Assembly: GCA_964648765.1 (NCBI GenBank)
Contig: CAZYLF010000002.1
Location: 68,579 to 132,578, forward strand
Length of the DNA stretch: 64,000 bases
Origin: an uncultured Candidatus Saccharibacteria bacterium
Lineage (GTDB): Bacteria; Patescibacteriota; Minisyncoccia; Phycocordibacterales; JACOZG01
Direction: 5' to 3'
The position numbers were made by a program, and so were the translations under genes. Under the pieces are notes generated by a model. It saw only the letters and a list, made by a program, of their open reading frames with translations. It was not told the DNA's origin and ran no database searches. This document shows positions 1,223 through 60,030 of the stretch, in pieces (position 1 is the first letter of the stretch; each line of letters starts with the position of its first letter).

Positions 1223-1254
1223 ATAAAAAAAGCCAGGGGTATACACACCCTGGC
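1223..1254 (-). terminator. Rho-independent terminator for the minus-strand speE-like operon, back-to-back with the plus terminator
   Basis: Minus strand reads gccagggtgtgtatacccctggc followed by ttttttt. Confidence 0.55.
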
Positions 1255-1276
1255 TAGTTGTTCCAAACTTTACTTT

Positions 1277-2959
1277 CTAATCGATTTGCCAACCCTGTTT
1301 GGTATAGAGTTGGAGTAGAACCGGATTCATCAAGGAATTAACTTCAGAGGATGCGGACGTTAAACGGTCACGGCCAAACTTTGTCCCAGACCTAAATACA
1401 TCCCCTGTGAGATAACGTGTCTCCACCAAACACTCAAAATGAGATGCTCGATGCAAAACCACTAATTGATCCTCAGGTCGAGTGAACAAAATCCATCCCC
1501 AGTCCCCAAATGACGGAACGTTATCGTGGTAAGGCAAGGTAGCCCAACCAGCCGCCTCCATTGTCCTTTGGATACAGAGGAACGCCTCCTTCGCATGGTA
1601 AGGCGATGTAGCTTGCGCCACAATCACCCCGCCCGGAGCTAAGCGCGCCCGGATCTTGAGGTAGAACTCTCGGCTATAAAGCTTTGCGAGTTCAATTGAG
1701 TTTGGATCAGGGAAGTCGATGATAATTACATCCCACTCCCCTCCCACTTCCTCCACAAAACGATCGGCATCGACGTTGTAAATCTGAACCTGGGTTAAAC
1801 GCTCCACTTTGGGTTTACCGTCGAGTCCAAATTCCTCCGTCTCATGCCAAACTATCCGAGCTGGCCCAGACTCCACCGCCTTAGGTTCATACACCTGAAC
1901 GCGGGCATCATCAAAAGCACCCTTATTCAGTTTCCGCAAAAGCGGATTCTCTTTGGCCAATTGAGTCATTCCTGGATCTAAATCAACCAAAGTCACCTCC
2001 TCAACATCAGGATACTTCAGCACCTCACGAAGCGCCAGACCATCACCTCCACCCAAAATGAGTACTGAGGAATGATTCTGGGAAACGGTCATCACAGGAT
2101 GCACTAATTGCTCGTGATAGACCGCCTCATCAACACTCGAAAACTGAAGATTACCATTTATAAACAATCGATAATCATCGAGTTTTTTGCCGTGAGTCAT
2201 AATGAGACGTTGGTATTTGGTTTGCTCAGCCAAAACAATCGGTTGATCGTAGAGTCGTTGTTCGAGTTTAGTGCTCCACACACGATTGTATTGATAGCCA
2301 ACCACAAGTAACACAGCACACAAAACAATCATGGCTCCGATCGATTTGCTCCGCCGCAAGTCACCACGACAAAGAAAAAATATGTAAGCAAGTATTGTGA
2401 TCACAATGATCGTACCCGCCACAATAAATCCAATCTCCGTCAGTGGAAATTTTGGCAAAAACCAGAACACCCAAATCATCGCGCCCACAAATGCACCGGC
2501 GTAATCCAGACTCAGGATATTGGCCAAGTTAATCCGCAACTCCGAAACGTAACGCGCACTAATGCGTGTCACGAGTGGAATCTCAAGACCAACCAAGAAG
2601 CCAATCGCCACCATAAATCCATACAGCACCAAAGAAAAATGATGCTCCAATAAACCGAAGGCGGCGTACGACGCAATCGGCGCAAAGCCGATCAAGAGCG
2701 CAACCACGATCTCAATAAGAAGAAACTGATCAATTAATCGATCCTCCCGTTTGAGAAACTTCTGCGCCCAAGCACCCACGCCCATCATGAACATCATCAC
2801 AGCAATTGTGATCGACATCTGCTCGATCGAGTTGCCTAAGATATATGTGGCCACCGCGCCAAGAATATACTCAGCAACTAAGCCACTACCACCAGTGATA
2901 AACATACACAAACCCAGCAGAAAGGCTGCCCGTCGGAACTTCCACTTGTTTTCTACCAT
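1277..2959 (-). CDS. speE: Polyamine aminopropyltransferase (spermidine synthase) fused to an N-terminal polytopic membrane domain
   Basis: C-terminal half carries LILGGGDGLALREVLKYPDVEEVTLVDLDPGM, the SpeE GGGDG SAM-binding core. N-terminal ~200 aa has multiple hydrophobic helices. Same architecture as mycobacterial membrane SpeE. Confidence 0.8.
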   Translation of the reverse strand: MVENKWKFRRAAFLLGLCMFITGGSGLVAEYILGAVATYILGNSIEQMSITIAVMMFMMGVGAWAQKFLKREDRLIDQFLLIEIVVALLIGFAPIASYAAFGLLEHHFSLVLYGFMVAIGFLVGLEIPLVTRISARYVSELRINLANILSLDYAGAFVGAMIWVFWFLPKFPLTEIGFIVAGTIIVITILAYIFFLCRGDLRRSKSIGAMIVLCAVLLVVGYQYNRVWSTKLEQRLYDQPIVLAEQTKYQRLIMTHGKKLDDYRLFINGNLQFSSVDEAVYHEQLVHPVMTVSQNHSSVLILGGGDGLALREVLKYPDVEEVTLVDLDPGMTQLAKENPLLRKLNKGAFDDARVQVYEPKAVESGPARIVWHETEEFGLDGKPKVERLTQVQIYNVDADRFVEEVGGEWDVIIIDFPDPNSIELAKLYSREFYLKIRARLAPGGVIVAQATSPYHAKEAFLCIQRTMEAAGWATLPYHDNVPSFGDWGWILFTRPEDQLVVLHRASHFECLVETRYLTGDVFRSGTKFGRDRLTSASSEVNSLMNPVLLQLYTKQGWQID

Positions 2960-3115
2960 CTTTCGGTCTCCTATTTAGGTTAACTTTTGGTCAAAATTCA
3001 CAAAGAACACCGCTATATTAATAGCATACTTCAATGAAAAAGTCAACAAAAAGGCCCTTCGACACGAAGTCGAAGGGCCAGGTAAAACGAAAGACCAAAT
3101 TCTAGCTTAATGCGG

Positions 3116-3967
3116 CTAGAGAACGCCGGCAGCCACAATAATTGCCACCACTATCATCGGTGCCACCAAAAGAAGAGCCGAAGCCGCATTCTTCTGTGTA
3201 ACCACTGCTCCACTCAGGGTTGTAGTTGGGAGGAAAAAATGATCCGCCAACCAAGTACACGCCCAAAGCAAAACAGCACCCACTCCTGCATACAAGCTAA
3301 ACGACATAATGTCTGCCGTCCAACCAGTGAATGGTCCAGTCAGACTGGCGCCGAGGATAATCCCCATACTCACCAGAAATCCACCGAAGACCACTCCCGC
3401 AGCTTGGTTTCCGTGACCCACCTGAAAGGCAGGATCAAAACCGAAACCATAAGAAGCCAAAGCGCTGATGATAACCAGCAACGCTTGACCAATAGCAAAG
3501 AACACAATCGCGCTACCCAACCCCCCACCATCTCCAGAAAAGGATCCGGCGGCGATCAATCCGGTAGCCACGTAACTACCCATCTCCACAATGCCGACTG
3601 CGATGTTATTCTCCTGCACCGCCTTGTTATTGTCGACACTATGCAAAATCAAATGGTCATTGATGTACGAGGAAATGGTCAAGAGTCCAATTACAATCAG
3701 ACCCTCAATGAACATATTCTGCACATCAAGCCAAAAGCTTTGCGACGCTCCACTCAAGGGGCCAGTTAGAGCAAAACCTAGACCCACAAGGAGTCCAACT
3801 TGCCGCAAACTGACCGCCATATTGCCCTTGTCTTCAATTTCCATTCGGTCATCGAATGGGGTCATTGCATCAGCCACCTTCTTCATCAGAAGAAGTTGTC
3901 CGAATGCAATCCCCAGCAAGACTACCGAACCCGAGATATGACCCAAATGAGTTGTCACAAAATCCAT
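3116..3967 (-). CDS. Membrane protein with repeated DUF350-like modules
   Basis: Internal repeat FDDRMEIEDKGNMAVSLRQVGLLVGLGFALTGPLSG versus DNNKAVQENNIAVGIVEMGSYVATGLIAAGSFSG, resembling the YjfL/DUF350 N-[IV]-A-V-G motif. Highly hydrophobic. Confidence 0.45.
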   Translation of the reverse strand: MDFVTTHLGHISGSVVLLGIAFGQLLLMKKVADAMTPFDDRMEIEDKGNMAVSLRQVGLLVGLGFALTGPLSGASQSFWLDVQNMFIEGLIVIGLLTISSYINDHLILHSVDNNKAVQENNIAVGIVEMGSYVATGLIAAGSFSGDGGGLGSAIVFFAIGQALLVIISALASYGFGFDPAFQVGHGNQAAGVVFGGFLVSMGIILGASLTGPFTGWTADIMSFSLYAGVGAVLLWACTWLADHFFLPTTTLSGAVVTQKNAASALLLVAPMIVVAIIVAAGVL

Positions 3968-4013
3968 TTGCTCAATCCTCCTTTTTTGAATTCTTCCTCA
4001 GTTTTGATAGCGA

Positions 4014-5666
4014 CTACTTGCCGCCACCACCAGGGCCACCACCACGACGGGCGGGTCCCGAACCACGAACAGAAGAGTCTGCTCTGCGGCCATTTGTCCC
4101 ACTACTCCCGGCCGTTTTCACTTCCCGGGCAACCTCTTTAAAGCCGCCCTGAGAAGCAAATTTACCCTGATTATATCGCCGAGATGAACGCACCGCACCG
4201 CTTGCGGTGCCGTAACGATTCTCCTCTCCGTCCCTTTCTCCGTAGTAATTTTTTGACCGGCCGCGATAATTGCTGTTCCAGTCATCCCACTCACTACGTC
4301 GGTAATAATGCGGCTGTCCGTCACCCAAGAGCATAGACATGAACCTATACTGTCCATACCATTCCCAAAAGCTATTGCCAGTCGCATCTTGTTTCCACGT
4401 GCCGTAACGTGCGTTACCCACTTGAGCCATCCCGGGAGGCGATGCTTCCTTAACTGCTTCGCTTTCGAAGCTGCCATAAGGCTTGGAGAGCAAAGCCATC
4501 CCAAGATTACCCCAATGACTGTCAAAGGTTCCAGCTGAAACTTCTTCCCAGTCACCTTCACTTTCTTTTTCATTTTTAATGAAAGTGTACTTGTGAAAAT
4601 ATTTTGGGGAAGTATCAACCAGATAGTATTCGGCATCGCCATGACTCGAGGATGGCCAATTTTCCTTTGGCTCAATCCCGAGAACATTCCACTTACCTTG
4701 ATCTATCTTAGTTGACAGGCCGCCCCAACCTCCGTAGCTGGCCACCAAACCGTCATCGGCCAGATCATCAAAGAAGTCAAAGACCTCCTCGCTAACCTGT
4801 CGCGGCTTGTAGTCATACTCCTTCTCAGTCGACCAGTCGGAACTCTCATCCCAACTAGTTCGACCAACAGTCACAAAGTAATCAGCGCGCATGTCGGCCA
4901 AAACTTTTGAATAGTCCTGGTACAGCTCACCAATTCCTTTTTCATACTCCGACGCTTGCTCACTGATAGTCGACGTTGCCGCCGCCACCAACTTGCAATT
5001 GTCTGCAAGCAACAACCAATCGGCATTTTTGCCTTTGGCCAGCTCGGCTTTAACGGTCGCTAAAGCCGTTGTGGCATCGCGACCTGTTTTTTGCACTGGG
5101 CTAAAGCGCTTCAAGATCTCATCCTTCTTGGGTTCATGATCCTTAAGCGCAGCCTCATGCTTAGTGAGAGACGTTTTAAGCCTCTCACTAATTTGCCTTA
5201 ACTCCTCCTCAGCTTTGGCTGCCCATTTGTCAGCACTGGCCTTAGCCTCAGAAATCAAAGCTACCCGCTCCCTAGGAACCTTGGCTTTGGTTGTCGCCTC
5301 CTTAATAGAGAGCTCAACTTGATCCAATTTTCCCTTCAACTTGGCGACATCATCACTATCATTGTTCTTGATGATTGCCGCCACGTCTTGATCAAAGATT
5401 TGACGTCCATGCTTGATCGCTTGATCAGCTTCAGCCAAAGTCCCCGACCACTTTTCTCGCTCGTCATAACGCTTGAGCTCAGCATAGTCTCCCGAAGCCA
5501 CCAGGGTTTTGTAACTCTGATTAGCATCATTGACCGCCGTCGTCGCTCTCGCCAAACTGTCTCCCACCAACTTCGCCTTCTCTTTGTCGGCTTTGGACAA
5601 GCCGCAGCCACCAAGAGAGAAAATGAGGAGAATCAGCGGCAATACCTGAAATTTCAATCGATTCAC
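4014..5666 (-). CDS. Lipoprotein, coiled-coil plus Trp/Tyr-rich domain, Gly/Arg-rich C-terminus
   Basis: Signal peptide with lipobox LIFSLGG-C. Long helical region rich in K/E/A. C-terminus ...RRGGGPGGGGK. Confidence 0.5.
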   Translation of the reverse strand: MNRLKFQVLPLILLIFSLGGCGLSKADKEKAKLVGDSLARATTAVNDANQSYKTLVASGDYAELKRYDEREKWSGTLAEADQAIKHGRQIFDQDVAAIIKNNDSDDVAKLKGKLDQVELSIKEATTKAKVPRERVALISEAKASADKWAAKAEEELRQISERLKTSLTKHEAALKDHEPKKDEILKRFSPVQKTGRDATTALATVKAELAKGKNADWLLLADNCKLVAAATSTISEQASEYEKGIGELYQDYSKVLADMRADYFVTVGRTSWDESSDWSTEKEYDYKPRQVSEEVFDFFDDLADDGLVASYGGWGGLSTKIDQGKWNVLGIEPKENWPSSSHGDAEYYLVDTSPKYFHKYTFIKNEKESEGDWEEVSAGTFDSHWGNLGMALLSKPYGSFESEAVKEASPPGMAQVGNARYGTWKQDATGNSFWEWYGQYRFMSMLLGDGQPHYYRRSEWDDWNSNYRGRSKNYYGERDGEENRYGTASGAVRSSRRYNQGKFASQGGFKEVAREVKTAGSSGTNGRRADSSVRGSGPARRGGGPGGGGK

Positions 5667-5671
5667 CTTTT

Positions 5672-6241
5672 CTAACTCCTTTCCGTTATTACTGTTGTTT
5701 CAGTGAAAACAATCGTGTTTTCATTTGGGTAAGAGTGAGCAGTTCTTGCGAACGCACCTCCACCTTGACGTGGACCAACATAAATCAATGTTTGAGGTAT
5801 CCACGGATCTTCCGACTTCTTAGGGAAGTCGTGACTCAAACCAATTTCACGAACAGAGTTCTTCGCGATCCCAATATCCAGTTGCAATTGCCCCAGTTTA
5901 TCAAGAGCCGAATCACCTGTTCTAACTTCGGAATCGAAGTTATAGGTTAGTCCACCCAAATCAAACTTCACCTGATCACGCGGAAGTGATTTAGCAACCA
6001 GCAATGGACGACCGCTAGTTGCTACATCCATGCAAGCAAACACTTCATTAAGAGCTTCGCCATCTGTGGTCGTAAAACGCAACACATGACTAGCCCCAAT
6101 GATTGCCGCTTGCACAAAGATCCCTCCACACCAACGTTCACGGACTTCGAGCAGATTAAACTGATCGAAATTCAGCGAGTCTTTACAAACCGTTAGGCGG
6201 AGTTCAACTGCAGATTGGTCGACATATACTGGTTCGCTCAT
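5672..6241 (-). CDS. Hypothetical protein in the speE-linked operon
   Basis: 189 aa ORF; 5-nt gaps to both neighbours. Confidence 0.45.
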   Translation of the reverse strand: MSEPVYVDQSAVELRLTVCKDSLNFDQFNLLEVRERWCGGIFVQAAIIGASHVLRFTTTDGEALNEVFACMDVATSGRPLLVAKSLPRDQVKFDLGGLTYNFDSEVRTGDSALDKLGQLQLDIGIAKNSVREIGLSHDFPKKSEDPWIPQTLIYVGPRQGGGAFARTAHSYPNENTIVFTETTVITERS

Positions 6242-6245
6242 ATCA

Positions 6246-6878
6246 CTATTTCTCCTCGTCGCCTGTAGCGATCACCTCAATTGACCGAACCGGTAGGCTA
6301 ACCGAAAGCCATGCCTCATAAGAATCTTCTTCACCCTCTTGCCACTCCTCAATGGTAAGATTTTCACCATCGCTTGCGGCAAACTCGTAGAAGTAGACCT
6401 TAATGGGCTTAGCATCAGCACTGCGCTTATACACCGCAGGCCAATCATCATCGTATTCGTAGACTTTCCGGTTCACCTTCAGTTCTTCACCAGCTTCACA
6501 GTACTCATCCAAATCCTCGGTGTCGACGGCGTTGCCATCTTCATCGATGATTTGGGTAGTTTTGACCTTACTTACGCTACGCCAGACCGTGACTTCATCA
6601 TCACGATCCCACTCAACGTAAATTGTCTCGCCAGTCAGAACATTAAACAGTGCCAGTTCAGTGGAAACAAAACTGAGCTTCTTCTTGAAGCTGTCATCCG
6701 TCTCCTGATATGTACTGACCTCTGTTACTTGGTACACCTGGCCAGAAAAGCGAATAAATCCGCCCTTCTTAACCGAGGTGATGTCGAAATTCGAACGCTC
6801 TGCTCGAGCAATCGGTTTCGTTAATGTCCGGATTGAACCAAATTGTCGATCCAGACGAGCTTTCGCTGTCACGTTCAT
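6246..6878 (-). CDS. Acidic hypothetical protein, possibly DUF4178-like
   Basis: 210 aa, D/E-rich C-terminal half. Its operon position is analogous to the small soluble proteins of mycobacterial speE clusters. The family assignment is from memory only. Confidence 0.4.
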   Translation of the reverse strand: MNVTAKARLDRQFGSIRTLTKPIARAERSNFDITSVKKGGFIRFSGQVYQVTEVSTYQETDDSFKKKLSFVSTELALFNVLTGETIYVEWDRDDEVTVWRSVSKVKTTQIIDEDGNAVDTEDLDEYCEAGEELKVNRKVYEYDDDWPAVYKRSADAKPIKVYFYEFAASDGENLTIEEWQEGEEDSYEAWLSVSLPVRSIEVIATGDEEK

Positions 6879-6930
6879 CAGAGCTCTCCTTTCTTTTCAA
6901 GATTTTAACTTGAAATGAGAAGTTTGATTT

Positions 6931-8088
6931 TTAAGAAGCAGCCGGCAACAACGCCGCTGCTTCGGGTTGATCTAGCGCTCCATATTGCGCCTTCACTTCC
7001 GGTTCCATTGCTCGGCTAAGTTCAGCCAATTTGGCTGAAACTTCCCGGGCTTGGGTCGTTCCCATCCTGATGGTATTTTCAACAGTACCGATGGTATTCA
7101 TCAGACTAGTGTGCGACTCTTCCAACTTGTCCAATGCAATCACTGGATTGTTGTAGAGGTCGCCGATTTCCACCGCCTGCGTTTCGAGCGCTTTCGCGTT
7201 TTCAACCATCATTGTTCCAAGAGTACCTTGGAACTCCTTGAGAGCATGTGCCACCCTTCTTTGGGTAGACAGAGCTTTATGAATGCGCAGACCATTCTGA
7301 AGAACACTTGGTCCTATCATAAGGGCGCTCTGCACTTGTTCATCGAGTAAGTTATTGGTCCGGAGTGCTTGCGTAATGGTAAGAGCAAACTGATTGTTTG
7401 CCTGTTCCATAGTACGCAAATCGCGAATGCGACGAGCCACCCGATCCAATTTACTGTCAAGCATTTTGATCTCAGTTTGGTCCGTTTCCGCCACCTTAAG
7501 AGCGCTCAAACGTTCCCAAACTAGCTCACCGACGTAAATCCACTTTTTGACTTCCAACTGACCGGAGTCAAGATCTTGGAATTGCTGGTGCATACCGATG
7601 GTTTGCTCCAACAACTGATCCTTTCCCGACCGTAAGCCGTCCAAAATAGTGGTAACATTGGTTTGCTCCGACTGCCAACGACCAGCAAAACGCCGGACGA
7701 TATGACGTCGAACCTTTGCCCCAAGCGGCAAATAACGAAACCACCAAGAATTGGTCAGGGAGTGGGGATTTAACTCCTCCATTACCGACCGAAGCTCAAG
7801 TAGCTTACTTGCCACAGGTGACTCTTCACCCTCAAAACTGCTTAAGAGCGACTGAGTACCGGCTCCAACTCGACGATTTACTTCTTCCATCTTTGTGATA
7901 GCTGAATGTCCAAACTTCCTCATAATATTGGAAACCTGGAATTCATCAGCTGCCCCGCCGATTTCGGTGGAAATAACCTCGGCATCCTGCCGAAGTGTAA
8001 TCTCCTTGGCATCATCAACGCCACGAGGACGCTTTGCAGCAATCACGGTGATTGCTTGGCTTTGCACATCATTGGGCATTTCACTCAT
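6931..8088 (-). CDS. All-helical protein, tentatively TelA/YaaN-like (toxic anion resistance family)
   Basis: 385 aa, the same size as TelA/YaaN. Predicted coiled-coil throughout. Preceded by an XpaC-like small TM protein, as in B. subtilis xpaC-yaaN. No diagnostic motif confirmed. Confidence 0.35.
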   Translation of the reverse strand: MSEMPNDVQSQAITVIAAKRPRGVDDAKEITLRQDAEVISTEIGGAADEFQVSNIMRKFGHSAITKMEEVNRRVGAGTQSLLSSFEGEESPVASKLLELRSVMEELNPHSLTNSWWFRYLPLGAKVRRHIVRRFAGRWQSEQTNVTTILDGLRSGKDQLLEQTIGMHQQFQDLDSGQLEVKKWIYVGELVWERLSALKVAETDQTEIKMLDSKLDRVARRIRDLRTMEQANNQFALTITQALRTNNLLDEQVQSALMIGPSVLQNGLRIHKALSTQRRVAHALKEFQGTLGTMMVENAKALETQAVEIGDLYNNPVIALDKLEESHTSLMNTIGTVENTIRMGTTQAREVSAKLAELSRAMEPEVKAQYGALDQPEAAALLPAAS

Positions 8089-8133
8089 TGTTTTTTCTCC
8101 TGTTTTAGACTTGTTCGCCTAGTTCACAATAAT

Positions 8134-8667
8134 TCAGACCGACAGAAATCGTGCCTTCATAAAGGCCGCTGCCGTATCAAATTCAGCCACCTGATCGCGT
8201 TCGACCAGGCCAGCAATCCGACCAAGCTCATTATCTAAGACATTAAGTGTTTCCAGCACCTCACTTTCCTTTGCTCGCTGATTTGCCAAAGGCAAATTAA
8301 GGAAAGGGTAGACGGTCTTTTCTGGCAAATAAACCCTGGCCAACTGATTTGCTGTCCAGGTTAGATCTTTACCAGCAAAGCGGCTGTTGAGTACTGGCAA
8401 CATCTCACGCAGTCGATCAATTACTGTTTCAACTACGCGGATGATATCTTGACTCAGACCAGCCTCTCGCACAGATAAATTTAAACGCGCCAGACCATCC
8501 AGCAATGGAGTCGGATCCTCTTGTGAGGCCGTCTCCCGTTTCGGGGAAACTTCCCCCACTGGGCCAGAGGTCGAACGTTTGAGCGGGGGCTTTGACCCCT
8601 TGATCGCCTGTCCAACCACATACACAATAACCCCAACAACAGCTAAACCAACAATCACTCCAACCAT
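8134..8667 (-). CDS. Small membrane-anchored protein, XpaC-like by position; first gene of the operon
   Basis: N-terminal TM MVGVIVGLAVVGVIVYVVG followed by a soluble domain. Confidence 0.35.
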   Translation of the reverse strand: MVGVIVGLAVVGVIVYVVGQAIKGSKPPLKRSTSGPVGEVSPKRETASQEDPTPLLDGLARLNLSVREAGLSQDIIRVVETVIDRLREMLPVLNSRFAGKDLTWTANQLARVYLPEKTVYPFLNLPLANQRAKESEVLETLNVLDNELGRIAGLVERDQVAEFDTAAAFMKARFLSV

Positions 8668-8786
8668 TTTTTTCTCCTTTCAAGAGAATTAGATTTTACT
8701 ACTTTTGTCTATTAAATTGACAAGGAACTGCCAGACGAACCTAGCATACTTATCATGTTTTGTCAACATTTTAGGCCTATTTTACG

Positions 8787-8814
8787 AAGAAAAAACCCGC
8801 ACTTGATGTGCGGG
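8787..8814 (-). terminator. Rho-independent terminator of the K+ channel gene
   Basis: Minus strand reads cccgcacatcaagtgcggg followed by tttttt. Confidence 0.6.
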
Positions 8815-8839
8815 TCGAAATAACCATATTATTAGCCAC

Positions 8840-9889
8840 TTAACTGACAAAAGAGGACCATTCTACTTGAGAATCAACTAATCGTTGATTTGCCAAATAA
8901 AATATCGACATTCCCCCTTTTACCAGACTGTCATTTCTGGGGTTAAGATCGACCTGGGCATTTGCTGACCAGTTCTGGGCCAAGCCAGTCACAATTGCAT
9001 CGTAACCTGTCTTGAAGCCGATGAATATTTGCCAAAATTTCACCTCTGAAACCCCATCAGGAATATTCATACGATACATAGTGGCATCTTGATCTTGATC
9101 ACTGGTCAAAAGCTGAAACACCCGACTTGAACCAGGATCTTGCATTGTCTGAACGATCATAGCCGAGGTCATTGAGGTAACCAGATCCACACTTTGATTG
9201 ACTCGGCGGAGCAAATTACCACTTTCTGAAGATCGGAAATAGGCAACCACATGAGCTTCTGGTGATGCTACTTGACTCACTGCAATTCCAATCGCCAAAG
9301 TGTGATCGTCATCACTACCATAAATCAAGATGACCCTGGCTCGTGATGCACATGCCTGCTCTAACACCTTCGATGAAATTAGATCTCCCTTCACAAAATC
9401 CACATGATCAGTGGCAAAAGGATTCTCCGGAGCAGTGGCTGAACACAAAACAATTGCTAATTTGCTCGTCTTAGGATCAGCCTTCAACTCTTTCACAATT
9501 TCTTCTGTTTTTCCGGGACGATATCCCATCAAGACAATGTGATTATTGAGCTTCAATTGAACCATGCCTTTTCTCCTTCTTTGAGAAAATTGAATGATGC
9601 TTTCGGCCATTTTTGTTAAAATGGCAGCAAAAAACCCGATACCGAAAAAGATGTCTACGGCACCAACTAGCCGCCCACCCAAAGTCGCAGGCGTGAAGTC
9701 ACCATAACCAACTGTTGCTACGGTGACAAGAAAATACCACCAGTAAACATCCGGACGAGAAATTGGACTACTTGGTTCAAAGTAAAGCATTAGCGACCAG
9801 CTAATGCCGAATAAAACCACAAGTCCGATTACGAGCACAGCCCAACTAATACGACTCAATACAAAGAGTGTTCTTTCGATTAGCCTCAT
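8840..9889 (-). CDS. Two-TM potassium channel with a C-terminal RCK/TrkA-N domain (MthK-like)
   Basis: Selectivity filter TVATVGYGD. RCK Rossmann region IVLMGYRPGKTEEIVKELK. Confidence 0.85.
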   Translation of the reverse strand: MRLIERTLFVLSRISWAVLVIGLVVLFGISWSLMLYFEPSSPISRPDVYWWYFLVTVATVGYGDFTPATLGGRLVGAVDIFFGIGFFAAILTKMAESIIQFSQRRRKGMVQLKLNNHIVLMGYRPGKTEEIVKELKADPKTSKLAIVLCSATAPENPFATDHVDFVKGDLISSKVLEQACASRARVILIYGSDDDHTLAIGIAVSQVASPEAHVVAYFRSSESGNLLRRVNQSVDLVTSMTSAMIVQTMQDPGSSRVFQLLTSDQDQDATMYRMNIPDGVSEVKFWQIFIGFKTGYDAIVTGLAQNWSANAQVDLNPRNDSLVKGGMSIFYLANQRLVDSQVEWSSFVS

Positions 9890-10063
9890 TAGTCCCTCCT
9901 TTCTTTAAATTTAGAGAACATTCCATTTCCGACAATACACTATTATGATAAATTGTCAATGGCACTAAATTAGTTCCAAATTAGTATCCCATAAACTTGC
10001 GGTGAGATAGGGTTGTAGTAGAATAACGGGGTATTTAAGCTTATAAAATTAAACAAAAAACAT

Positions 10064-10594
10064 ATGGAAGAAATAAATCAAGTTCAGGAAGGAGGGTCAA
10101 AAAAGGGTTTATACATCGTAATTGCCATCGTGGTGATTCTTGGAATTTGGTATTTTATGAGTGGTTCATCAAGCAATAATGCTGAAAACACAGTTGAAAA
10201 CGCTCTGGAGGGCGCGGTGGGAGGCTCAACCACCTTCTCAAACGAGGAGGGCACCGTAAACATTGGTGTAAACAAACTCCCCGACAATTGGCCGTCAGAT
10301 GCCCCAATTTACAAAAATGCCACTATTCAATATTCAGGATCATCTAATCCACAAACTGGCGAAAAAGGTTCAATGGTTGTGTTTATGACCACAGATAATG
10401 CTCAAAACGTAGTTGATTTTTATAAAGCAGAGCTAGCAAAAAATGGCTGGACAGTGGAACAAACTGCCTCAATTGGAGGTATGACGGTGTTGGGAGCTAA
10501 AAAGGATACTCGTAGCCTTGGGGCCCAAATTGCTGATGCTGGCGAAGGGCAAGTGAGTGTTTCTATCGGTATCTCAAGTCCAGACTTACAATAG
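10064..10594 (+). CDS. Hypothetical secreted or membrane-anchored protein
   Basis: N-terminal TM/signal anchor LYIVIAIVVILGIWYFM followed by a Gly/Ser-rich soluble domain. Confidence 0.45.
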   Translation: MEEINQVQEGGSKKGLYIVIAIVVILGIWYFMSGSSSNNAENTVENALEGAVGGSTTFSNEEGTVNIGVNKLPDNWPSDAPIYKNATIQYSGSSNPQTGEKGSMVVFMTTDNAQNVVDFYKAELAKNGWTVEQTASIGGMTVLGAKKDTRSLGAQIADAGEGQVSVSIGISSPDLQ

Positions 10595-22176: not shown

Positions 22177-22527
22177 TCATTTTTCGTATCCTTTCAAAAT
22201 CAAACGGGTTTCGATGAGTTCGGCAGCTTGGAGTCCGATCCTTCGCAAAATTTCTCGATTGGCGCCCCATGTTTTTGCACCAAAATAAATAAACATGAGA
22301 TCAAGATCCGAGGGACTGTCCCCAAGCAACGCTCGCCAAGCTTCTTCCACTCCGCGATCATCCAAGCTCTCGTCAAACAAATGACGACAAAGTGATGAAT
22401 GATCGTGTTTGGCCAGAGACTCAGTTGTCTCCTTCACCATCAATGACGCATGGTGAATTTCTTCTTCAAGTGCGTTCACTCGACGACACGAAAAGAAGTA
22501 CTCCGTCATCCGATTCTCACTCCCCAT
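22177..22527 (-). CDS. Hypothetical small protein
   Basis: 116 aa ORF with its own terminator downstream. Confidence 0.4.
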   Translation of the reverse strand: MGSENRMTEYFFSCRRVNALEEEIHHASLMVKETTESLAKHDHSSLCRHLFDESLDDRGVEEAWRALLGDSPSDLDLMFIYFGAKTWGANREILRRIGLQAAELIETRLILKGYEK

Positions 22528-22607
22528 TAGAACCCCTTTCTTAAAAAAGAACCGGCGATTTCTAAAAATTATCCTATCATACTTAGTATAAAAAGTAAAG
22601 GGGTGGA

Positions 22608-26405: not shown

Positions 26406-28139
26406 TTAGCCGAACACTTTTTTGGGCAACTTTTGTTTACCCTTAGCCGTCGTCGGTTTTCTTGCACCCTTCGCATCGCTATTCAGAATAAGAAAGACCT
26501 CTGCCTGGATCAAACGATCAAAGGCTCGTTTCAGAACCATTCGATCACCCGGCAAGAGAGAGTAAAGGGTGAGGACCTGAATCGCCACAAATTGCTGAAA
26601 GCGTGTGAGGGCCGCATCGCTACGTTCATCACAAGCCACAAACAATTCGTTGGCGATGTTATAGGTTAGGAGCCCAGTCTGATCATCAAAGCTCCAGACC
26701 TCAGAAGCCAACAAACGCTGGTAGTCAAACTGAAGTCCAAGACTGTTTGACTTAACAATCGTACGCTTGGTACCACGGCCACCAAAAACCGAAAGTGGGA
26801 TATGATCTGGACGCTCCTTCTCACCGGGGCCACTCGGCCCTCGACCACCACTAGGTGAATTAGGGGTTTTACCCTTATCATCACCTACCGCAAGAGAGGT
26901 CTCGGATTGCTCGCCCTTGACCTTCTTTTCTGGCACATCAGCATGATTGACACCAACACTGCCAAACTTAAGCCCCTTAACCACTCCAAGAAGATGGGCT
27001 TGCTTCGGATCACCGAAGAGCTTCTCCAGCAAACTCATGGCACGAGTGCCAATATCTTGCCAGCGAGTACTCTTCTTGGCCTGCTTTACTTCCGAATAAA
27101 GCACCTCGCCCCAACGCTTCCACCACTCTTCAATGGCAACAGCAAAGGAAATCCAGGCGTCGTCCTTGGCAAAGGAATTACGGTCTGCTAAGAGCGTAAC
27201 CTTTTCCGCCAAAATCTCACCTTCAAAGAATCCAGAATTCAAAGCATCAATGATCTCTTCATCCAACTGCCCCTCAAGCGACCGCAAAAAATAGAACATC
27301 GGAAAACGGAAGTCATTACCGAGGACACCGGTTACGATTTTCCCCTTGCGATCCTTCGGGACAAAGAGGGTGAACTTTACTCGACCCGCAAGTGAATTGC
27401 TAACCACGCGCTCTTCGAGCGGAGTTCCGTTGAAGATTGGTGCGCTCACATTGAGACGCTCCTCCTTCTTGCCATCTGGGCGCACCACAATCACATTAAC
27501 CTTAACGCGATTGCGACGCATCGTCACTCGAAAACGGTCTTGAATTGCATGCACCAGATTATCAATGGAGATAGCGCTGATCGAATCATCTTTGACAAAA
27601 CCATCAAGTGCCATCTCAGAACGCCATTCGAGCCTCTGGCCAGTCTTGCTATTGACGTTACCAAAAACCAGATCCCGTCGCTCCTCCATCGGAACCGACA
27701 GGCGGTCGCGACTTGCGATCAATTTAGCACTGTCAAACACCCATTGATAGTACGGGGTCTTCTGCCCTACCGGGCAGGAGGTAAAGGTGTGCTGTCGGCA
27801 TTTGCCAACTGGGCTCACCAGACCAATACCAAACTGACCAAGCGCATCCTTACCTTTGCGGTTGGGGTCAGCAATCGTCCGAAGAGCAGCGTTAAACTGC
27901 TCCTCTGTCGTACCGTTCCCATTGTCGCGCACCGTCAACCGACGAGTCGCAAAGTTGACATAAATGTCAACACGCGTGGCTTGAACATCGGTATCAATTG
28001 CGTTCTGCACCAACTCAAGGATGGTGTCAAAAAGTGTCGGGTAACGACCCGCCAAATGACCGAGAATTGCCCCCATATTGAAACCAAGGGGCACAAATTT
28101 CGGCGACGGATTAACAGTGGCACTACTTGCCATGACCAT
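26406..28139 (-). CDS. GHKL-superfamily ATPase of the MORC/HtpG/MutL-like (HATPase_c_3-type) group; the C-terminal ~380 aa is unassigned
   Basis: Bergerat motifs: N-box ILELVQNAIDT, G1 box VRDNGNGT, G2 box GQFGIGLVSPVGK. 577 aa. 17-nt overlap with the upstream HTH gene. Confidence 0.7.
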   Translation of the reverse strand: MVMASSATVNPSPKFVPLGFNMGAILGHLAGRYPTLFDTILELVQNAIDTDVQATRVDIYVNFATRRLTVRDNGNGTTEEQFNAALRTIADPNRKGKDALGQFGIGLVSPVGKCRQHTFTSCPVGQKTPYYQWVFDSAKLIASRDRLSVPMEERRDLVFGNVNSKTGQRLEWRSEMALDGFVKDDSISAISIDNLVHAIQDRFRVTMRRNRVKVNVIVVRPDGKKEERLNVSAPIFNGTPLEERVVSNSLAGRVKFTLFVPKDRKGKIVTGVLGNDFRFPMFYFLRSLEGQLDEEIIDALNSGFFEGEILAEKVTLLADRNSFAKDDAWISFAVAIEEWWKRWGEVLYSEVKQAKKSTRWQDIGTRAMSLLEKLFGDPKQAHLLGVVKGLKFGSVGVNHADVPEKKVKGEQSETSLAVGDDKGKTPNSPSGGRGPSGPGEKERPDHIPLSVFGGRGTKRTIVKSNSLGLQFDYQRLLASEVWSFDDQTGLLTYNIANELFVACDERSDAALTRFQQFVAIQVLTLYSLLPGDRMVLKRAFDRLIQAEVFLILNSDAKGARKPTTAKGKQKLPKKVFG

Positions 28140-28938
28140 TCTCCTTCTCTTTCTGTTTCAGCTCATCACAGTAGGACTCCGTGGCCCGTTCACCGCAAAG
28201 AGCATTCAAAACTATCGAACAATCTGCAATGGAGTGACCACTTCTTTCACAAAGCGAACGCAAGAAACGTCGCTCAGCGGGAGTATATTGCTCAGTTACC
28301 ACCTGGCTTGCCAAGCGATGAACGGCTGACACAATATCAACCAAAGTTAACACTACAGCACTGCGCGCTTCTGAATTTTCTGCACTGTTTTGCGTATCTT
28401 GTTTGTGCTGAGGCGATGGTTTGGAGCCTTCGAGTTCAGCATCATCCATAATAACTGCAATCTCTTTTTTCCAGTGACTCATCAGCTCATGATTTCTTGA
28501 CCGCAGCCGAGCGTTGATTTCTTCCATGATCGAAAGCTTATCGGGCGATAATGGTGAATCCCCATTAATCATCCGGTAAACGGTAGATTCATTTAAATTG
28601 AACTGCCTCACCAACTCAGAGGTCGAAACCAACCCAAGGGCGACGTTGGAGAAAAGTTCCCTAACTTCACTACCCGATCGCTCTCGCTCCAACTGATGAT
28701 AACCGGCCAACTCAAGAAAAAGCTTCAGTTTAGGCGAGACCTTCTGAAGCTCAAACTTGTCGTCCCTACTACCACGAAACCAACGTCTCATGGTTGATTC
28801 ATCAACTTCGAGTAGATTCTCAATGCGCTTGCGCACATTAAAAAGACCGTCTGTCTCGTTTCTTTTTTGAACAATATCTCTCAAAAATGCTGAGAAGCAT
28901 TCGGATGTTGTTCCACGAAATCTTACCTTGTTTGGCAT
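28123..28938 (-). CDS. HTH-domain protein co-operonic with the GHKL ATPase
   Basis: Helix-turn-helix-like segments ...LEVDESTMRRWFRG... and ...LVRQFNLNESTVYRMINGD... Acidic/basic C-terminal half. Confidence 0.5.
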   Translation of the reverse strand: MPNKVRFRGTTSECFSAFLRDIVQKRNETDGLFNVRKRIENLLEVDESTMRRWFRGSRDDKFELQKVSPKLKLFLELAGYHQLERERSGSEVRELFSNVALGLVSTSELVRQFNLNESTVYRMINGDSPLSPDKLSIMEEINARLRSRNHELMSHWKKEIAVIMDDAELEGSKPSPQHKQDTQNSAENSEARSAVVLTLVDIVSAVHRLASQVVTEQYTPAERRFLRSLCERSGHSIADCSIVLNALCGERATESYCDELKQKEKENGHGK

Positions 28939-29201
28939 TGTTCCCCCTTTCTGTTTCTGATTTCTATTGGTTTAGCAAAACCCGCTCTCAAGCCTCCAGC
29001 AAAGAGCATGATATTTCCGAGTTCAACCATTTGTCTTCTCTCGGGTTCACCATCCCCTTGCCAGTTGGATATCGAAAAAGTAACACTGTCACCTTCATCA
29101 ATTCCCAACTCAACAGCTTGATCATCAAGCACCGGCCAAGTCACGGCATAGCGACTATCGCTAGGCCCAGTAACTAAAGCCACCTCTGCTTTGATTACCA
29201 C
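28923..29201 (-). CDS. Small protein, possibly a SpoVT/AbrB-type swapped-hairpin domain; first gene of the island operon
   Basis: GTG start with RBS AAGGAGGAG. Segment RYAVTWPVLDDQAVELGIDEGDSVTFSIS resembles the AbrB/MazE V-x-I-P-x-x-x-R-x-x-L-G-I-x-x-G-D pattern. Confidence 0.35.
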   Translation of the reverse strand: MVIKAEVALVTGPSDSRYAVTWPVLDDQAVELGIDEGDSVTFSISNWQGDGEPERRQMVELGNIMLFAGGLRAGFAKPIEIRNRKGEQCQTR

Positions 29202-29312
29202 ATCTCTCCTCCTTTCTAATTCTTATTCTGAAAAGTTTTCAAAGACCATCCCCATCCACCCAATGTGGATTTCTAAGTACTTAACTATCATGTTAAAGTA
29301 ATAAAGTCAATT

Positions 29313-29341
29313 CTTGACAAGGGTTTCAATAGATGCATAAT
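29313..29341 (+). promoter_or_regulatory. Sigma-70-like promoter for the divergent plus-strand gene pair
   Basis: TTGACA, 16-17 nt, then cATAATg. Confidence 0.4.
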
Positions 29342-29403
29342 GTCCAACAGTTAAGCAAGGTTCTTTGGAAAGTTAGGAGGTGGTTTATCTGGATGAAGTT
29401 GTA

Positions 29404-29682
29404 ATGGCGATGGTAAAAAAGATTGTATCAAAGCCAGAACGTGGACCGCCGTACGCGGTGGCCAAAGCCGTTGGGATTAAGGGTTCAATAACCTTTAGGT
29501 TAACTCCCCCAGTGTGGTGTGATGACTCACCCCCAGAGGAAGGGGTTGCCGTCCGACTCACAAAACTTAAAAAGTTAGAGCGCGGATGGCGAGCAATGTC
29601 TGGACGGTTGTGGAAGCCGTCAGACGAAATTAAGCAGGGCCAAGAGCCCAAGCAGTCGGCTAAGCCGACAAGGAGCAAGTAG
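29404..29682 (+). CDS. Hypothetical small basic protein; start uncertain (the ORF track begins at GTG 29380 inside the RBS)
   Basis: RBS AGGAGGTG at 29375-29382. ORF ends TAG and overlaps the next GTG start by 1 nt. Confidence 0.35.
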   Translation: MAMVKKIVSKPERGPPYAVAKAVGIKGSITFRLTPPVWCDDSPPEEGVAVRLTKLKKLERGWRAMSGRLWKPSDEIKQGQEPKQSAKPTRSK

Positions 29683-30248
29683 TGAATAAACACGAGGTAA
29701 CGAAATTGCTGCTGAATCAATTTGGTGAAAATTGCAAACAGCTCGAAAAGCTGTGGCAAAACGCGATGAAGATGGTTAACGTTGAGCGAGAAAGGCTCAA
29801 CAAAATACACGGCGAGAAACTGGTCGACGCTCTGTTCAACACCCTTGGGATTACCCTCCCACCCATGTCGACCAAGAAAAAGGTAAAGGTGCCCAATGAG
29901 GACCAAAACCAAGCAAAGATGGCCAAAAAGTCCGCTGTCACCGTAACGCCCAAGAAGAAAAAGCGGCCGACGCCGAAGTATGATTTGCCTTACAACCAGT
30001 TGCGTGACCACGTATTGCAGTGGCTCACAGAAAATCCACCCCAGGATCAATTCACCAGTAAACAAGCCGTTGAGATCATGAGGATACGTCTCGGCAGCAA
30101 CTCATTTGATTCAGGGCACGTTTCTTTGGCACTCTTACATCTCACTGGCGTCAAACATATCGGTAGGCTGAGTCAGAATGGTGGGCCCCAAATCAACGTC
30201 TACCAGTTGACTGGCGAACAGATTGAAAAAAAGAAAGCCGGAAAGTAA
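29682..30248 (+). CDS. Hypothetical protein with a Lys-rich central linker
   Basis: GTG start with AAGGAG RBS. 188 aa. Followed by a strong terminator. Confidence 0.45.
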   Translation: MNKHEVTKLLLNQFGENCKQLEKLWQNAMKMVNVERERLNKIHGEKLVDALFNTLGITLPPMSTKKKVKVPNEDQNQAKMAKKSAVTVTPKKKKRPTPKYDLPYNQLRDHVLQWLTENPPQDQFTSKQAVEIMRIRLGSNSFDSGHVSLALLHLTGVKHIGRLSQNGGPQINVYQLTGEQIEKKKAGK

Positions 30249-47689: not shown

Positions 47690-48439
47690 TTATTTCTTGA
47701 TCGCAAAAAAAACTTTATCCAATAGAATACTTTTGACATACTTCCAATCAAAACCATTTTGCTTTAGGAGCTTCTCGTTCTCATCATCAGTAAACACTAA
47801 GTTGGGTTCTTCATCTCTTAAATAATGTTTAGTCCATTCAACGAATAAGTCTGGTCTATTGTGCTTCGTATAAAACAGGGATAAATCAAATAAGATTTGA
47901 GCTAAATCCTTTATTCTTTGATCTCCAGTATTCCCCAGTTTTTCCAATACTGCAAATACTCCGTGTGGTTTTAGAATTCTACTGACCTGCTCATAAATAA
48001 CCGCTCGCTTAACCGGTGGAAAATTATGTAACACCCATGCAGTGTAAACAGCATCGACCGATTCATCAGGGATAGTTTTTATAACTTCCTCAATGTCACC
48101 AACTTTCTTTTCATAATTATAAGACTCAAGATAAGCATCGGCGCGACTTAATAATTCCTTATCAAATTCATTCAGAATAAATTTTGCTTTTGGAAATTCT
48201 TTCGCCACTAATTTCGTGGTAAATCCATACCCTGCCCCAATATCAAGAAAAATGAGTGAAGACCCCCCATTTATACTTTCCTTAAAATGACTCTTAAGAG
48301 ATTCCGAAATGGTTTGTTGTAATTTACCGTGAGAAGGAAATACTTTTCCGAAAAGGTCATATTCTTCAACAAGAGTATCTGAGAAATTGTTTGTTTTCAT
48401 AAATTTTATTTTATTTTCCAGCATTCCATAATTCTTCAA
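47690..48439 (-). CDS. Class I SAM-dependent methyltransferase
   Basis: Motif I FLDIGAGYGFTT. Acidic motif II FILNEFD. Confidence 0.7.
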   Translation of the reverse strand: MKNYGMLENKIKFMKTNNFSDTLVEEYDLFGKVFPSHGKLQQTISESLKSHFKESINGGSSLIFLDIGAGYGFTTKLVAKEFPKAKFILNEFDKELLSRADAYLESYNYEKKVGDIEEVIKTIPDESVDAVYTAWVLHNFPPVKRAVIYEQVSRILKPHGVFAVLEKLGNTGDQRIKDLAQILFDLSLFYTKHNRPDLFVEWTKHYLRDEEPNLVFTDDENEKLLKQNGFDWKYVKSILLDKVFFAIKK

Positions 48440-49541: not shown

Positions 49542-50178
49542 TATATTTCTTTTGTAATCGAGAAATTAGTAAATGTAGAGGTGATAAAATTATTAGGAAG
49601 AATATCACCAATAAAGAGTAAATCTCAACGGGCTTATAGATCATAGCGTTTATGGTTTGAGCCGTTCTAAATAACTCAGGGACAGAGATAAGACTAGCAA
49701 ACAAAGTGTATTCAAGCATCGAAGCCTGATTGAGTAAGAGTTGTGGCAAAGTCCTTCTGACCAATAAAGGTAGCTCAATATGTTGCACAACTTGGTTTTT
49801 AGACATTCCCAGAGTTACCCCTGCCTCGCGGTATGATTTGGGAAGTAACTCTAGTTCAACAGTAACCACATTTGCCGTTGCGATAATATTAATAATTCCC
49901 AAAGCAATCACTGTGGTCCAAAATGGATTTATTACAATTCCCAACAACCCTTGTAATGGGTAATGTAACCAAAATAGAAACACGAGCACAGGAATAACTT
50001 TTGTCACAAAACGTAAAATTTTAATTATTTTACCCACTTCCGGATTGTACCTTCCACCAATAACACCAATAAGAGTTCCAAGTGGAACTCCAATTAATAT
50101 TATAAGACCGAGAAGTTCTAATGTGGTCAAAAAACCTTCTAGGAACAAGTAATGATATTGAATCAAAACCTGTATCAT
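49525..50178 (-). CDS. Amino-acid ABC transporter permease (HisM/GlnP-like)
   Basis: Five or more TM helices. EAA-like loop SYREAGVTLGMSKNQVVQHIELP. Confidence 0.8.
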   Translation of the reverse strand: MIQVLIQYHYLFLEGFLTTLELLGLIILIGVPLGTLIGVIGGRYNPEVGKIIKILRFVTKVIPVLVFLFWLHYPLQGLLGIVINPFWTTVIALGIINIIATANVVTVELELLPKSYREAGVTLGMSKNQVVQHIELPLLVRRTLPQLLLNQASMLEYTLFASLISVPELFRTAQTINAMIYKPVEIYSLLVIFFLIILSPLHLLISRLQKKYIAVYA

Positions 50179-50186
50179 AATTTATT

Positions 50187-60027: not shown

Positions 60028-60030
60028 TTT

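Follow-up and report, generated by a model that had tools for sequence, protein, structure and literature searches.

The window analyzed here (64 kb of contig CAZYLF010000002.1, with coordinates counted from its first letter) harbors on the minus strand, between positions 1277 and 9889, a cluster of genes built around a membrane-fused aminopropyltransferase and a TelA-family protein. The cluster is one representative of a gene module that is conserved, mobile and associated with the envelope. The invariant core of the module is formed by a SpeE-like aminopropyltransferase anchored by seven transmembrane (TM) segments, an 8TM DUF350/YjfL protein, a surface lipoprotein whose conserved C-terminal domain is accompanied by a Gly/Arg tail, and a cytoplasmic DUF4178 protein. 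In the window copy this core is supplemented by a DUF2617 protein, an RCK-gated K+ channel and a dyad of TelA with a small membrane-anchored protein, g1. The reading that we prefer, with a probability of roughly 0.6, is that the module would serve stress-linked aminopropyl transfer at the membrane, that it would have been gained horizontally and that two of its three transcription units would be co-regulated.

Seven minus-strand open reading frames (ORFs) lie in the order g1 (8134–8667), TelA (6931–8088), DUF4178 (6246–6878), DUF2617 (5672–6241), lipoprotein g5 (4014–5666), DUF350 (3116–3967) and TM-fused SpeE (1277–2959), separated by gaps of 45, 52, 4, 5, 46 and 156 nt, with the K+ channel gene (8840–9889) upstream. 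The seven genes had been delimited in a previous examination of the letters of the window (below, the sequence-only reading) and are real. That reading left the K+ channel gene out of the module, while the neighbourhood census shows that it belongs to the system as a conserved member. All eight ORFs are intact and each is preceded by a strong Shine-Dalgarno site. In the profile search five of the seven proteins exceed curated cut-offs (TelA, DUF4178, DUF2617, double DUF350 and the 7TM-fused aminopropyltransferase); g1 (177 aa) and g5 (550 aa) match no Pfam family in the Pfam scan.

The census was made by scanning one genome per species with a g5 profile and metagenomes with a SpeE profile, and the loci were annotated with custom-built hidden Markov models (HMMs). 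Conserved neighbourhoods are present at 80 genome loci and 80 metagenome loci, and also in Oleispira-like, Pleionea and Kangiellaceae genomes. Across several phyla, the genes of SpeE, DUF350 and the lipoprotein are neighbours in almost all of the 74 species-level genome loci as well as in many metagenome loci. Both the family matches and the conservation of gene order in other genomes, on which the sequence-only reading had staked its module, are therefore found. The loci fall into two classes. The long-g5 class, reduced to 37 clusters by de-duplication at 90% SpeE identity, contains DUF350 in all 37 clusters, DUF4178 in 35, g1 in 33, TelA in 32, DUF2617 in 12 and S-adenosylmethionine decarboxylase (AdoMetDC) in 11; the TelA count takes in the divergent TelA (417–418-aa ORFs) of the Campylobacterota loci L007 and L025. 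g1 accompanies TelA in 30 of the 32 TelA-containing clusters. The TelA pair is thus not peculiar to this genome; it is the commonest form of the long-lipoprotein class. The short-g5 class (46 genome loci, including Shewanella) has neither g1 nor TelA, carries AdoMetDC adjacent in 26/46 loci and corresponds to the published PspA type. The K+ channel gene is adjacent in 14/37 long-type and 27/46 short-type clusters.

The full seven-gene set of the window occurs in 7 further independent loci with GC contents from 0.35 to 0.65, namely Longimicrobiales L019, Arcobacter L007, Campylobacterota L025 and the metagenomic L100, L104, L110 and L111. The gammaproteobacterial order is g1-like, TelA, DUF4178, g5-like, DUF350 (283 aa), TM-SpeE, K+ channel and AdoMetDC. 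The proteins g1 and g5, for which Pfam has no family, are homologous to their positional counterparts in these clusters (26–36% and 28–30% identity, respectively), with many invariant columns. None of the 12 clusters with DUF2617 (nor the window) has an adjacent AdoMetDC gene within the ±10-kb flanks, versus 11 of the 25 without DUF2617 (Fisher p = 0.007, with kinship ignored and the DUF2617-less clusters being nearly all gammaproteobacterial). In the TelA-less loci of Paceibacterota (L033, 1528–2574, minus strand) and Desulfatibacillum (L005, 6350–7918, plus strand) another, uncharacterised ORF lies directly upstream of g1. The assignment of these ORFs (348 aa and 522 aa, respectively) as divergent TelA is unsupported (hhalign ≤1%), and both may represent other occupants of the TelA slot.

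The whole TelA-type module, permuted and together with SpeD, is carried by the 600-kb Alteromonas mediterranea plasmid pAMCP48-600 (NZ_CP018025.1, 198751–205409; locus L086) in the order SpeE, SpeD, 169-aa protein, TelA, DUF4178, 510-aa protein and DUF350, with a DNA cytosine methyltransferase gene and many hypothetical genes as neighbours. This is direct evidence of the module on mobile replicons. Separately, the loci from a Polaribacter MAG (metagenome-assembled genome; Bacteroidota, L032) and an alphaproteobacterial Paracoccaceae MAG (L026) have the same architecture as the Kangiella/gammaproteobacterial loci L024 and L029, with near-equal HMM scores, which suggests recent transfer or mis-binned contigs.

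The last gene of the cluster (1277–2959) encodes the 7TM-fused polyamine aminopropyltransferase (SpeE-like, PRK03612 type). The protein scores 600 bits with NF002956 (cut-off 472), NF002956/PRK03612 being an already curated NCBIfam family of membrane-fused polyamine aminopropyltransferases, and 116 bits with Spermine_synth (PF01564); the match to the MFS_SpdSyn model is marginal (44.5 bits, cut-off 40). Its N-terminal part (residues 1–245) comprises seven hydrophobic segments that are kept across 68 homologs (from loci L005–L084), so that a catalytic GGGDG domain indeed stands behind a polytopic membrane domain, as had been proposed, and an N-terminus devoid of predicted TM segments is ruled out. 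The catalytic domain aligns to solved aminopropyltransferases with the YHE..HP, GGGDG, VDLD and DFPDP motifs intact. The catalytic-motif positions are 97–100% conserved in the 68 TM-fused homologs of both classes; Y281, H282, GGGDG, D328 and D415-x-P-D-P are conserved in 100% of them. An insertion of ~40 aa is located at residues 357–397. A Cys pair aligning to positions 539 and 547 is found in ~71% of the long-type homologs and is absent in the window protein.

The topology of SpeE is predicted from the distribution of charges. In the 68 homologs the N-terminus together with loops 2–3, 4–5 and 6–7 contains on average 10.2 Lys and Arg residues, versus 1.9 in loops 1–2, 3–4 and 5–6; this positive-inside bias is seen in 68/68 homologs, and an eighth hydrophobic segment is absent. 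Because of the positive-inside rule and the seven TM segments, the N-terminus is predicted to be inside and the catalytic domain, following TM7, to be outside the cell. The adjacent AdoMetDC of the relatives is class-1b-sized and has no signal peptide; the frequency of this adjacency ties the enzyme to decarboxylated S-adenosylmethionine (dcSAM).

The other proteins are encoded upstream of speE, DUF350 directly so. The DUF350 (YjfL family) membrane protein (3116–3967) shows two domains and eight hydrophobic segments (PF03994 138 bits, cut-off 26, E 3e-40), and the acidic (pI 4.45), cytoplasmic 210-aa protein encoded at 6246–6878 is a DUF4178 protein (PF13785 37.4 bits, cut-off 25, E 3e-9). Both had been named correctly from the sequence, as had the acidity of the latter. 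The surface lipoprotein g5 (550 aa, 4014–5666) is composed of a lipobox LGGC (Cys21), an N-terminal coiled coil, a beta-rich C-terminal domain and a Gly/Arg-rich tail, in agreement with its earlier description as a lipoprotein with such a tail, and is predicted to be located outside the cell. The window protein carries a proper lipobox where the gammaproteobacterial homologs carry a signal anchor. The conserved beta-rich C-terminal domain (residues ~355–500) is common to g5 and the Shewanella 'Ctha_1186' lipoprotein; the likeness is given by a tblastn match of residues ~375–520 to short-type lipoproteins, including those of the Shewanella loci L079 and L081 (E ~1e-8). DUF4247 had been suggested for this lipoprotein and is rejected, PF14042 giving no match at E ≤ 10 in the window protein and 8 homologs (9 members). 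The DUF2617 protein (189 aa, 5672–6241; PF10936 61.6 bits, cut-off 22.3, E 1e-16) has the residues D8, H52, E66, H169 and E174 invariant in the alignment; the family is predicted to be an enzymatic beta-sandwich (Ravi et al., PMC11237479). The K+ channel (8840–9889) is built of two TM helices with a TVGYGD filter and a cytoplasmic RCK/TrkA_N domain (Pfam Ion_trans_2 and TrkA_N).

The TelA-family protein (385 aa, 6931–8088) covers profile positions 17–328 of 332 of PF05816 with 125.4 bits (cut-off 30), well above the cut-off, so its naming as TelA was right. It is soluble and all-helical, with a long helical hairpin. Its nearest homologs come from marine Gammaproteobacteria (40–47% identity) and from L089, a 2.8-kb metagenomic fragment in which the K+ channel gene (Kch) lies directly upstream of g1-TelA and the proteins are 59% (Kch), 40% (g1) and 57% (TelA) identical to those of the window. 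No TelA relative of more than 57% identity is present among 5.8 billion clusters, and a metagenome scan with the single TelA sequence for closer relatives of the cluster gave no match. No relatives with solved structures were found for TelA, g1 or g5. In Firmicutes TelA and a small TM partner are envelope-stress genes (PMC12791056, PMC6811118).

The partner g1 (177 aa, 8134–8667), whose gene lies 45 nt upstream of telA, consists of an N-terminal TM anchor (residues 2–18), a variable linker and a conserved, helical cytoplasmic domain of ~120 aa. A K/R-rich stretch follows the TM segment, and the topology is predicted to be N-out/C-in, which would place the helical domain in the cytoplasm beside TelA. 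The family is small (184 representative clusters among 1.84 billion proteins), and the single-sequence structure model of g1 is poor (pLDDT 57). g1 resembles XpaC in its architecture and in its place immediately upstream of telA, and had been called XpaC-like. By sequence this label is unsupported, as the matches to PF10112 are driven by the TM segment and stay below the threshold, and a word-indexed homology search with g1 returned the query alone. PF10112 is matched by 3/24 and then 6/98 family members with best E 0.003–0.004 (E ≥ 0.004 in the set of 98), the best score is 18.7 bits (cut-off 29.8), and g1 of the window itself gives no match. The match rate equals that of families whose matches are obviously TM-driven, and the match of the family consensus comprises the TM segment only and is gone once this segment is removed.

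A further TelA neighbour was met in Bacillus sp. N5-665 (L085, 3982–4815), where the gene of a TelA paralog has that of a 277-aa TM-anchored DUF3974 protein (E 6e-76) behind it and not in front of it. The kinds of small TM-anchored helical neighbours of TelA are three: XpaC, g1 and the DUF3974 protein. The sequence in question, listed in PLSDB as 'Bacillus sp. N5-665 plasmid p1' (NZ_CP093325.1; loci L085, L090 and L091), is 5.5 Mb long and contains dnaA, dnaN, gyrB, gyrA, rRNA operons and further core genes; the plasmid label is mistaken, the record being a chromosome. The usual place of xpaC-yaaN, between the rRNA operon and yaaO-tmk, is without this gene pair.

The g1-TelA dyad lies directly upstream of DUF4178, which is the slot occupied by DUF2170(CesT/Tir)-PspA in Shewanella. 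Homology was found neither between TelA and PspA nor between g1 and DUF2170 (hhalign probability ≤1% overall and ≤0.2% for these two comparisons), and the Pfam scan gives no PspA_IM30 or DUF2170 match in the cluster.

The cluster appears to be transcribed as three units, Kch, g1-TelA-DUF4178-DUF2617-g5-DUF350 and speE, because hairpins and motif sites are found between the genes. A promoter-like TTGACA-16-TATTGT (9932–9959, minus strand) was found by the promoter scan just upstream of the K+ channel gene, and a terminator-like hairpin with a T-run (8794–8816, minus strand; dG -16.1 kcal/mol, z -4.85) ends the unit. The next unit is preceded by a promoter-like TTGACA-N10-AGTATGCTA upstream of g1 (8736–8766, minus strand), which can also be read as TTGACA-17-TAGGTT with an extended -10 TGC. 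DUF350 and speE are separated by an internal terminator-like hairpin followed by a T-run (3053–3079, minus strand; 11 bp, 8 of them GC), which is the strongest of the three (dG -23.4 kcal/mol, z -6.2). Behind it TTGACT-N10-AGTATGCTA is located upstream of speE (3016–3046, minus strand), readable as TTGACT-17-TATTAA with an extended -10 TGC. The speE unit ends with a terminator hairpin with a T7 run (1224–1255, minus strand; dG -16 kcal/mol, z -3.5), placed back to back with the plus-strand terminator of a convergent gene (1192–1214). The sequence-only reading described a seven-gene operon with a single terminator; the hairpin at the end of the cluster is indeed there, and it is not the only one, the stronger hairpin at 3053–3079 with a promoter-like element behind it speaking against a single operon.

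After each of the two internal hairpins stands the same composite motif, TTGACW-N10-AGTATGCTA, which can be read as a -35 box followed at a spacing of 17 nt by an extended -10 (TGC-TAnnnT). With 0 mismatches it has exactly 2 sites in the 64 kb, these two, whereas even at ≤2 mismatches 0.2 sites are expected by chance. Because the same promoter-like motif stands before both, the g1-DUF350 unit and the speE unit are probably co-regulated. The arrangement has counterparts elsewhere. In L089 a hairpin and then TTGACA-N12-TATGCTA lie between Kch and g1, the spacer being otherwise diverged; in Paceibacterota L033 a hairpin with a T-run and a promoter-like element are found at the DUF350/speE junction. 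In Proteobacteria clusters DUF350 and speE are almost contiguous. The sole other near-match of the motif in the window (2 mismatches; TTTACT-N10-AGTATGATA, 22575–22599, minus strand) lies upstream of a 116-aa gene (22177–22527).

The window also encodes short RpoB, RpoC and SMC, along with DnaG, sigma-70 and DnaE. In the homology search RpoB is 70–79% identical to that of named Patescibacteria, Paceibacterota, Vogelbacteria and Nomurabacteria MAGs, and because of these identities the host is taken to be a Paceibacteria-type bacterium of the candidate phyla radiation (CPR), so RpoB bears out the reduced-genome host that had been expected. Genomes of this type are about 1 Mb in size. In a relative whose RpoB is 93% identical, the order RpoB-RpoC-DnaG-sigma70-DsbA-Sua5-74aa is preserved and two peptidase-M14 genes follow; in the window the site of these M14 genes is occupied by a 176-aa gene and the Kch-to-SpeE block. 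The 176-aa gene (10064–10594, plus strand), situated at the synteny break and divergent from the K+ channel gene, encodes a protein with an N-terminal TM/signal segment and without an assigned family; in every other locus examined it is outside the conserved module.

The genes from g1 to speE have a GC content of 0.485 versus 0.432 ± 0.037 in the 45 other genes (Mann-Whitney p = 2e-4), with GC at third codon positions (GC3) of 0.48 versus 0.40. The sequence-only reading had described the whole region 1–9.9 kb as GC-richer; this holds for 1277–8667 and not for the K+ channel gene (0.433) or the 1–1277 flank. The closest relatives of the cluster proteins are no more than 33–53% identical, and their lineage varies from protein to protein: for SpeE, g5, DUF4178 and DUF2617 they belong to Desulfatibacillum, Longimicrobiales and Arcobacter, for Kch and DUF350 to Paceibacterota L033, and for TelA to the gammaproteobacteria and L089. 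The metagenome SpeE profile scan returned nothing above 50% identity. Because of the synteny break and the GC excess, the most economical reading is that the block was gained horizontally, though not recently.

Three other parts of the window differ in composition. A second GC-rich patch at 26406–30065 (gene GC 0.49–0.50, GC3 0.52) includes the gene of a 577-aa HATPase_c_3 protein, and this patch too may have been acquired. Four consecutive minus-strand genes at 47690–51014 are low in GC (0.34–0.39, GC3 ~0.30, versus a window mean of 0.43). Three large minus-strand genes at 53744–61344 (580, 1514 and 437 aa) show GC at second codon positions of 0.49–0.53 (other genes ~0.37) and GC3 of 0.28–0.38, which suggests compositionally biased, possibly surface, proteins.

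In the preferred mechanism the membrane enzyme would move an aminopropyl group from dcSAM to an amine that is situated at the membrane, be it a polyamine bound for the surface or an envelope constituent other than a polyamine. DUF350 and the lipoprotein would constitute the membrane and surface parts of the machine. TelA with its anchor g1 may act as a cytoplasmic, membrane-peripheral part that senses stress or stabilises the membrane, in the role of PspA, and the K+ channel may couple the process to ion or charge balance. The outcome would be an envelope that is more cationic or more stable under membrane stress. A similar general proposal was made for the PspA forms by Ravi et al. (PMC11237479).

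A number of points weigh against this interpretation. A catalytic domain on the outer side of the cell, as predicted, agrees poorly with dcSAM being in the cytoplasm and with an AdoMetDC without a signal peptide, unless the membrane domain or DUF350 delivers the donor or one of the segments is re-entrant. No AdoMetDC gene is found within the 64-kb window, so the supply of the donor in the host stays conjectural. TelA and PspA have no likeness in structure or sequence, and their common role is argued from position. As to transcription, neither of the two AGTATGCTA promoter-like elements is called by the consensus promoter scan, their -10 hexamers being weak, and if the internal hairpin acts as an attenuator that lets transcription pass, the seven-gene operon would be retained. 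As to the origin, the excess of GC is modest and a few other genes of the window equal it, and the synteny break is defined by a single relative, in which the block may have been lost.

A more far-reaching version of the mechanism appears to us tentative and rather unlikely. According to it TelA-g1 would be a non-homologous functional replacement of PspA-DUF2170 in an envelope aminopropylation machine; the outward catalytic domain of SpeE would carry out aminopropyl transfer at the surface beside the lipoprotein, with the donor delivered by the membrane domain or DUF350; and the DUF2617-type clusters (CPR, Desulfatibacillum, Campylobacterota and M. tuberculosis) would need no linked AdoMetDC to obtain or handle the donor. 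If this is true, the long-obscure TelA family would be the cytoplasmic stress arm of an envelope-modifying system.

The same observations can be read in other ways. The module may serve polyamine and cation homeostasis or transport: ordinary spermidine would be made, the 7TM domain, DUF350 and the K+ channel would move polyamine and K+ across the membrane, so that spermidine would be exported or displayed at the surface, and TelA and g1 would be regulators instead of effectors of membrane stress. This explanation, which we consider possible but improbable, agrees with the transporter-like character attributed to the TM domain by Ravi et al. (PMC11237479), and also with the recurrence of the K+ channel, the weak MFS_SpdSyn match and the canonical pocket residues. 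No sequence feature separates it from stress-linked aminopropyl transfer, from which it differs in the acceptor and in the role of TelA. What speaks against it is a study by Li et al. in which such fusions reportedly neither complemented speE nor made spermidine. A simpler alternative is a plain spermidine biosynthesis gene beside unrelated envelope genes, with no module at all. speE does have its own promoter-like element and a strong hairpin in front of it, and its product bears the catalytic signature of bona fide aminopropyltransferases; the linkage of SpeE, DUF350 and the lipoprotein across phyla, which is also published, and the motif common to both units make such a chance neighbourhood quite improbable.

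The remaining explanations are likewise poorly supported. Homologs of TelA are named 'toxic anion resistance protein' or 'YaaN involved in tellurite resistance', and with PF05816 well above the cut-off a tellurite or toxic-anion resistance determinant comes to mind; among the nine proteins scanned, however, there are none of the partners KilA/TelB or TerB/C/D/Z, TelA is embedded in a polyamine-type module with AdoMetDC, and Firmicute telA mutants are mild for tellurite and show envelope-antibiotic phenotypes alongside, so this function is very improbable. We judge it just as doubtful that the block is a decaying or silent island gained horizontally. Its atypical composition, its absence at the syntenic site of a close relative and the missing AdoMetDC gene would fit such an island, whereas eight intact ORFs with strong Shine-Dalgarno sites, the retained catalytic and family-invariant residues, the gained lipobox and the host-like terminators and promoter-like elements at the units would not; besides, ~9 kb of dead weight is unlikely to last in a genome of this size. 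An anti-phage defence island is hardly credible: although the block is mobile, accessory and sporadic, and although SpeE matches PADLOC mad2 (E 7e-18) and g5 weakly matches ProA, the mad2 match reflects only the generic SAM-dependent fold, PADLOC gives no other match, and no nuclease, ATPase or typical defence domain is present.

The core module is spread over M. tuberculosis, Shewanella, many marine Gammaproteobacteria, sulfate reducers and now a CPR bacterium. Among the alternatives to PspA in it, TelA with its own membrane anchor is the most frequent, which links two poorly understood envelope-stress proteins to one machine. TelA gains a concrete and testable context besides 'tellurite resistance', and culturable carriers are at hand (Pleionea mediterranea DSM 25350, Neptuniibacter sp. 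SY11_33, Desulfatibacillum alkenivorans DSM 16219 and the Alteromonas megaplasmid). The retention of ~9 kb in a genome of ~1 Mb suggests a benefit to an organism whose membrane is thought to be host-dependent. The puzzle of the outside domain and the mutual exclusion of DUF2617 and AdoMetDC provide specific hypotheses. The literature searched yielded no description of the TelA-g1 form, of its prevalence, of its presence in CPR or of the split layout of transcription; TelA is absent from the text and supplement of PMC11237479, and neither a paper linking TelA to the module nor one settling what the module does was found in that literature, in line with what had been supposed on its function.

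Among known systems, the Firmicute xpaC-telA (yaaN) pair resembles g1-TelA in that the telA gene directly follows the gene of a small protein that is anchored by an N-terminal TM segment and has a helical domain in the cytoplasm. It is linked to cell-envelope stress and to resistance to cationic or lipopeptide antibiotics. The two differ in that g1 has no PF10112 match beyond TM-driven noise, and the Firmicute pair is not known to be part of a SpeE/DUF350 module. Membrane-fused spermidine synthase-like proteins, associated with DUF350 and often with class 1b AdoMetDC, are said to have been described by Li, Kurihara, Kim, Liang and Michael in 2019. These fusions reportedly make no spermidine and probably aminopropylate another substrate; they are said not to complement an E. 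coli speE mutant, and their carriers to be without spermidine. The window SpeE differs from them in being of the PRK03612 7TM type with a marginal MFS_SpdSyn match and in having no AdoMetDC gene in the window.

The relation to PspA-linked polyamine clusters, proposed in the sequence-only reading, is supported by PMC11237479. E. coli yjfIJKLMC (group 3, PMC11237479) has in common with the window a DUF350/YjfL protein, a helical membrane-stress protein, a K+ channel and polyamine-related chemistry. It differs in its 4TM DUF350, in PspA (YjfJ) with DUF2170, in an ATP-grasp ligase similar to glutathionylspermidine synthetase (GspS), in DUF1190 and DUF2491 and in having no SpeE fusion; by Pfam scan the window cluster has no GspS-like ATP-grasp ligase, DUF2491, DUF1190 or PspA/DUF2170. 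The SO_3765-type operon of Shewanella oneidensis (group 2 PspA-CesT/Tir, PMC11237479) is closer. It shares the Ctha_1186 lipoprotein with a low-complexity tail, the 8TM DUF350, the TM-SpeE, DUF4178 and a nearby K+ channel, and in both systems a two-gene dyad with one soluble helical member lies directly upstream of DUF4178. In contrast to the window, its dyad is DUF2170-PspA, its lipoprotein is short (~330 aa) and devoid of the N-terminal coiled-coil half, DUF2617 is absent, and the order is permuted (in L079: short g5, DUF350, SpeE, DUF2170, PspA, DUF4178-like, small ORF, Kch).

The core DUF4178-DUF2617-lipoprotein-DUF350-TM-SpeE as such is a published module (Ravi et al. 2024, PMC11237479). 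In M. tuberculosis Rv2597-2601 it is found without the dyad, in the order TM+DUF4178, DUF2617, SIG+DUF4247, YjfL and TM+Spermine_synth (PMC11237479 supplement). The likeness of the window cluster to this locus, already recognized from the sequence, thus extends to an identical core order, and both lack PspA and an adjacent AdoMetDC. The window cluster differs from that of M. tuberculosis in its lipoprotein, which is not of DUF4247 type and combines a Ctha_1186-type C-terminal domain with a long coiled-coil extension at the N-terminus, in its DUF4178 protein without a TM segment, and in the addition of the g1-TelA dyad and the K+ channel.

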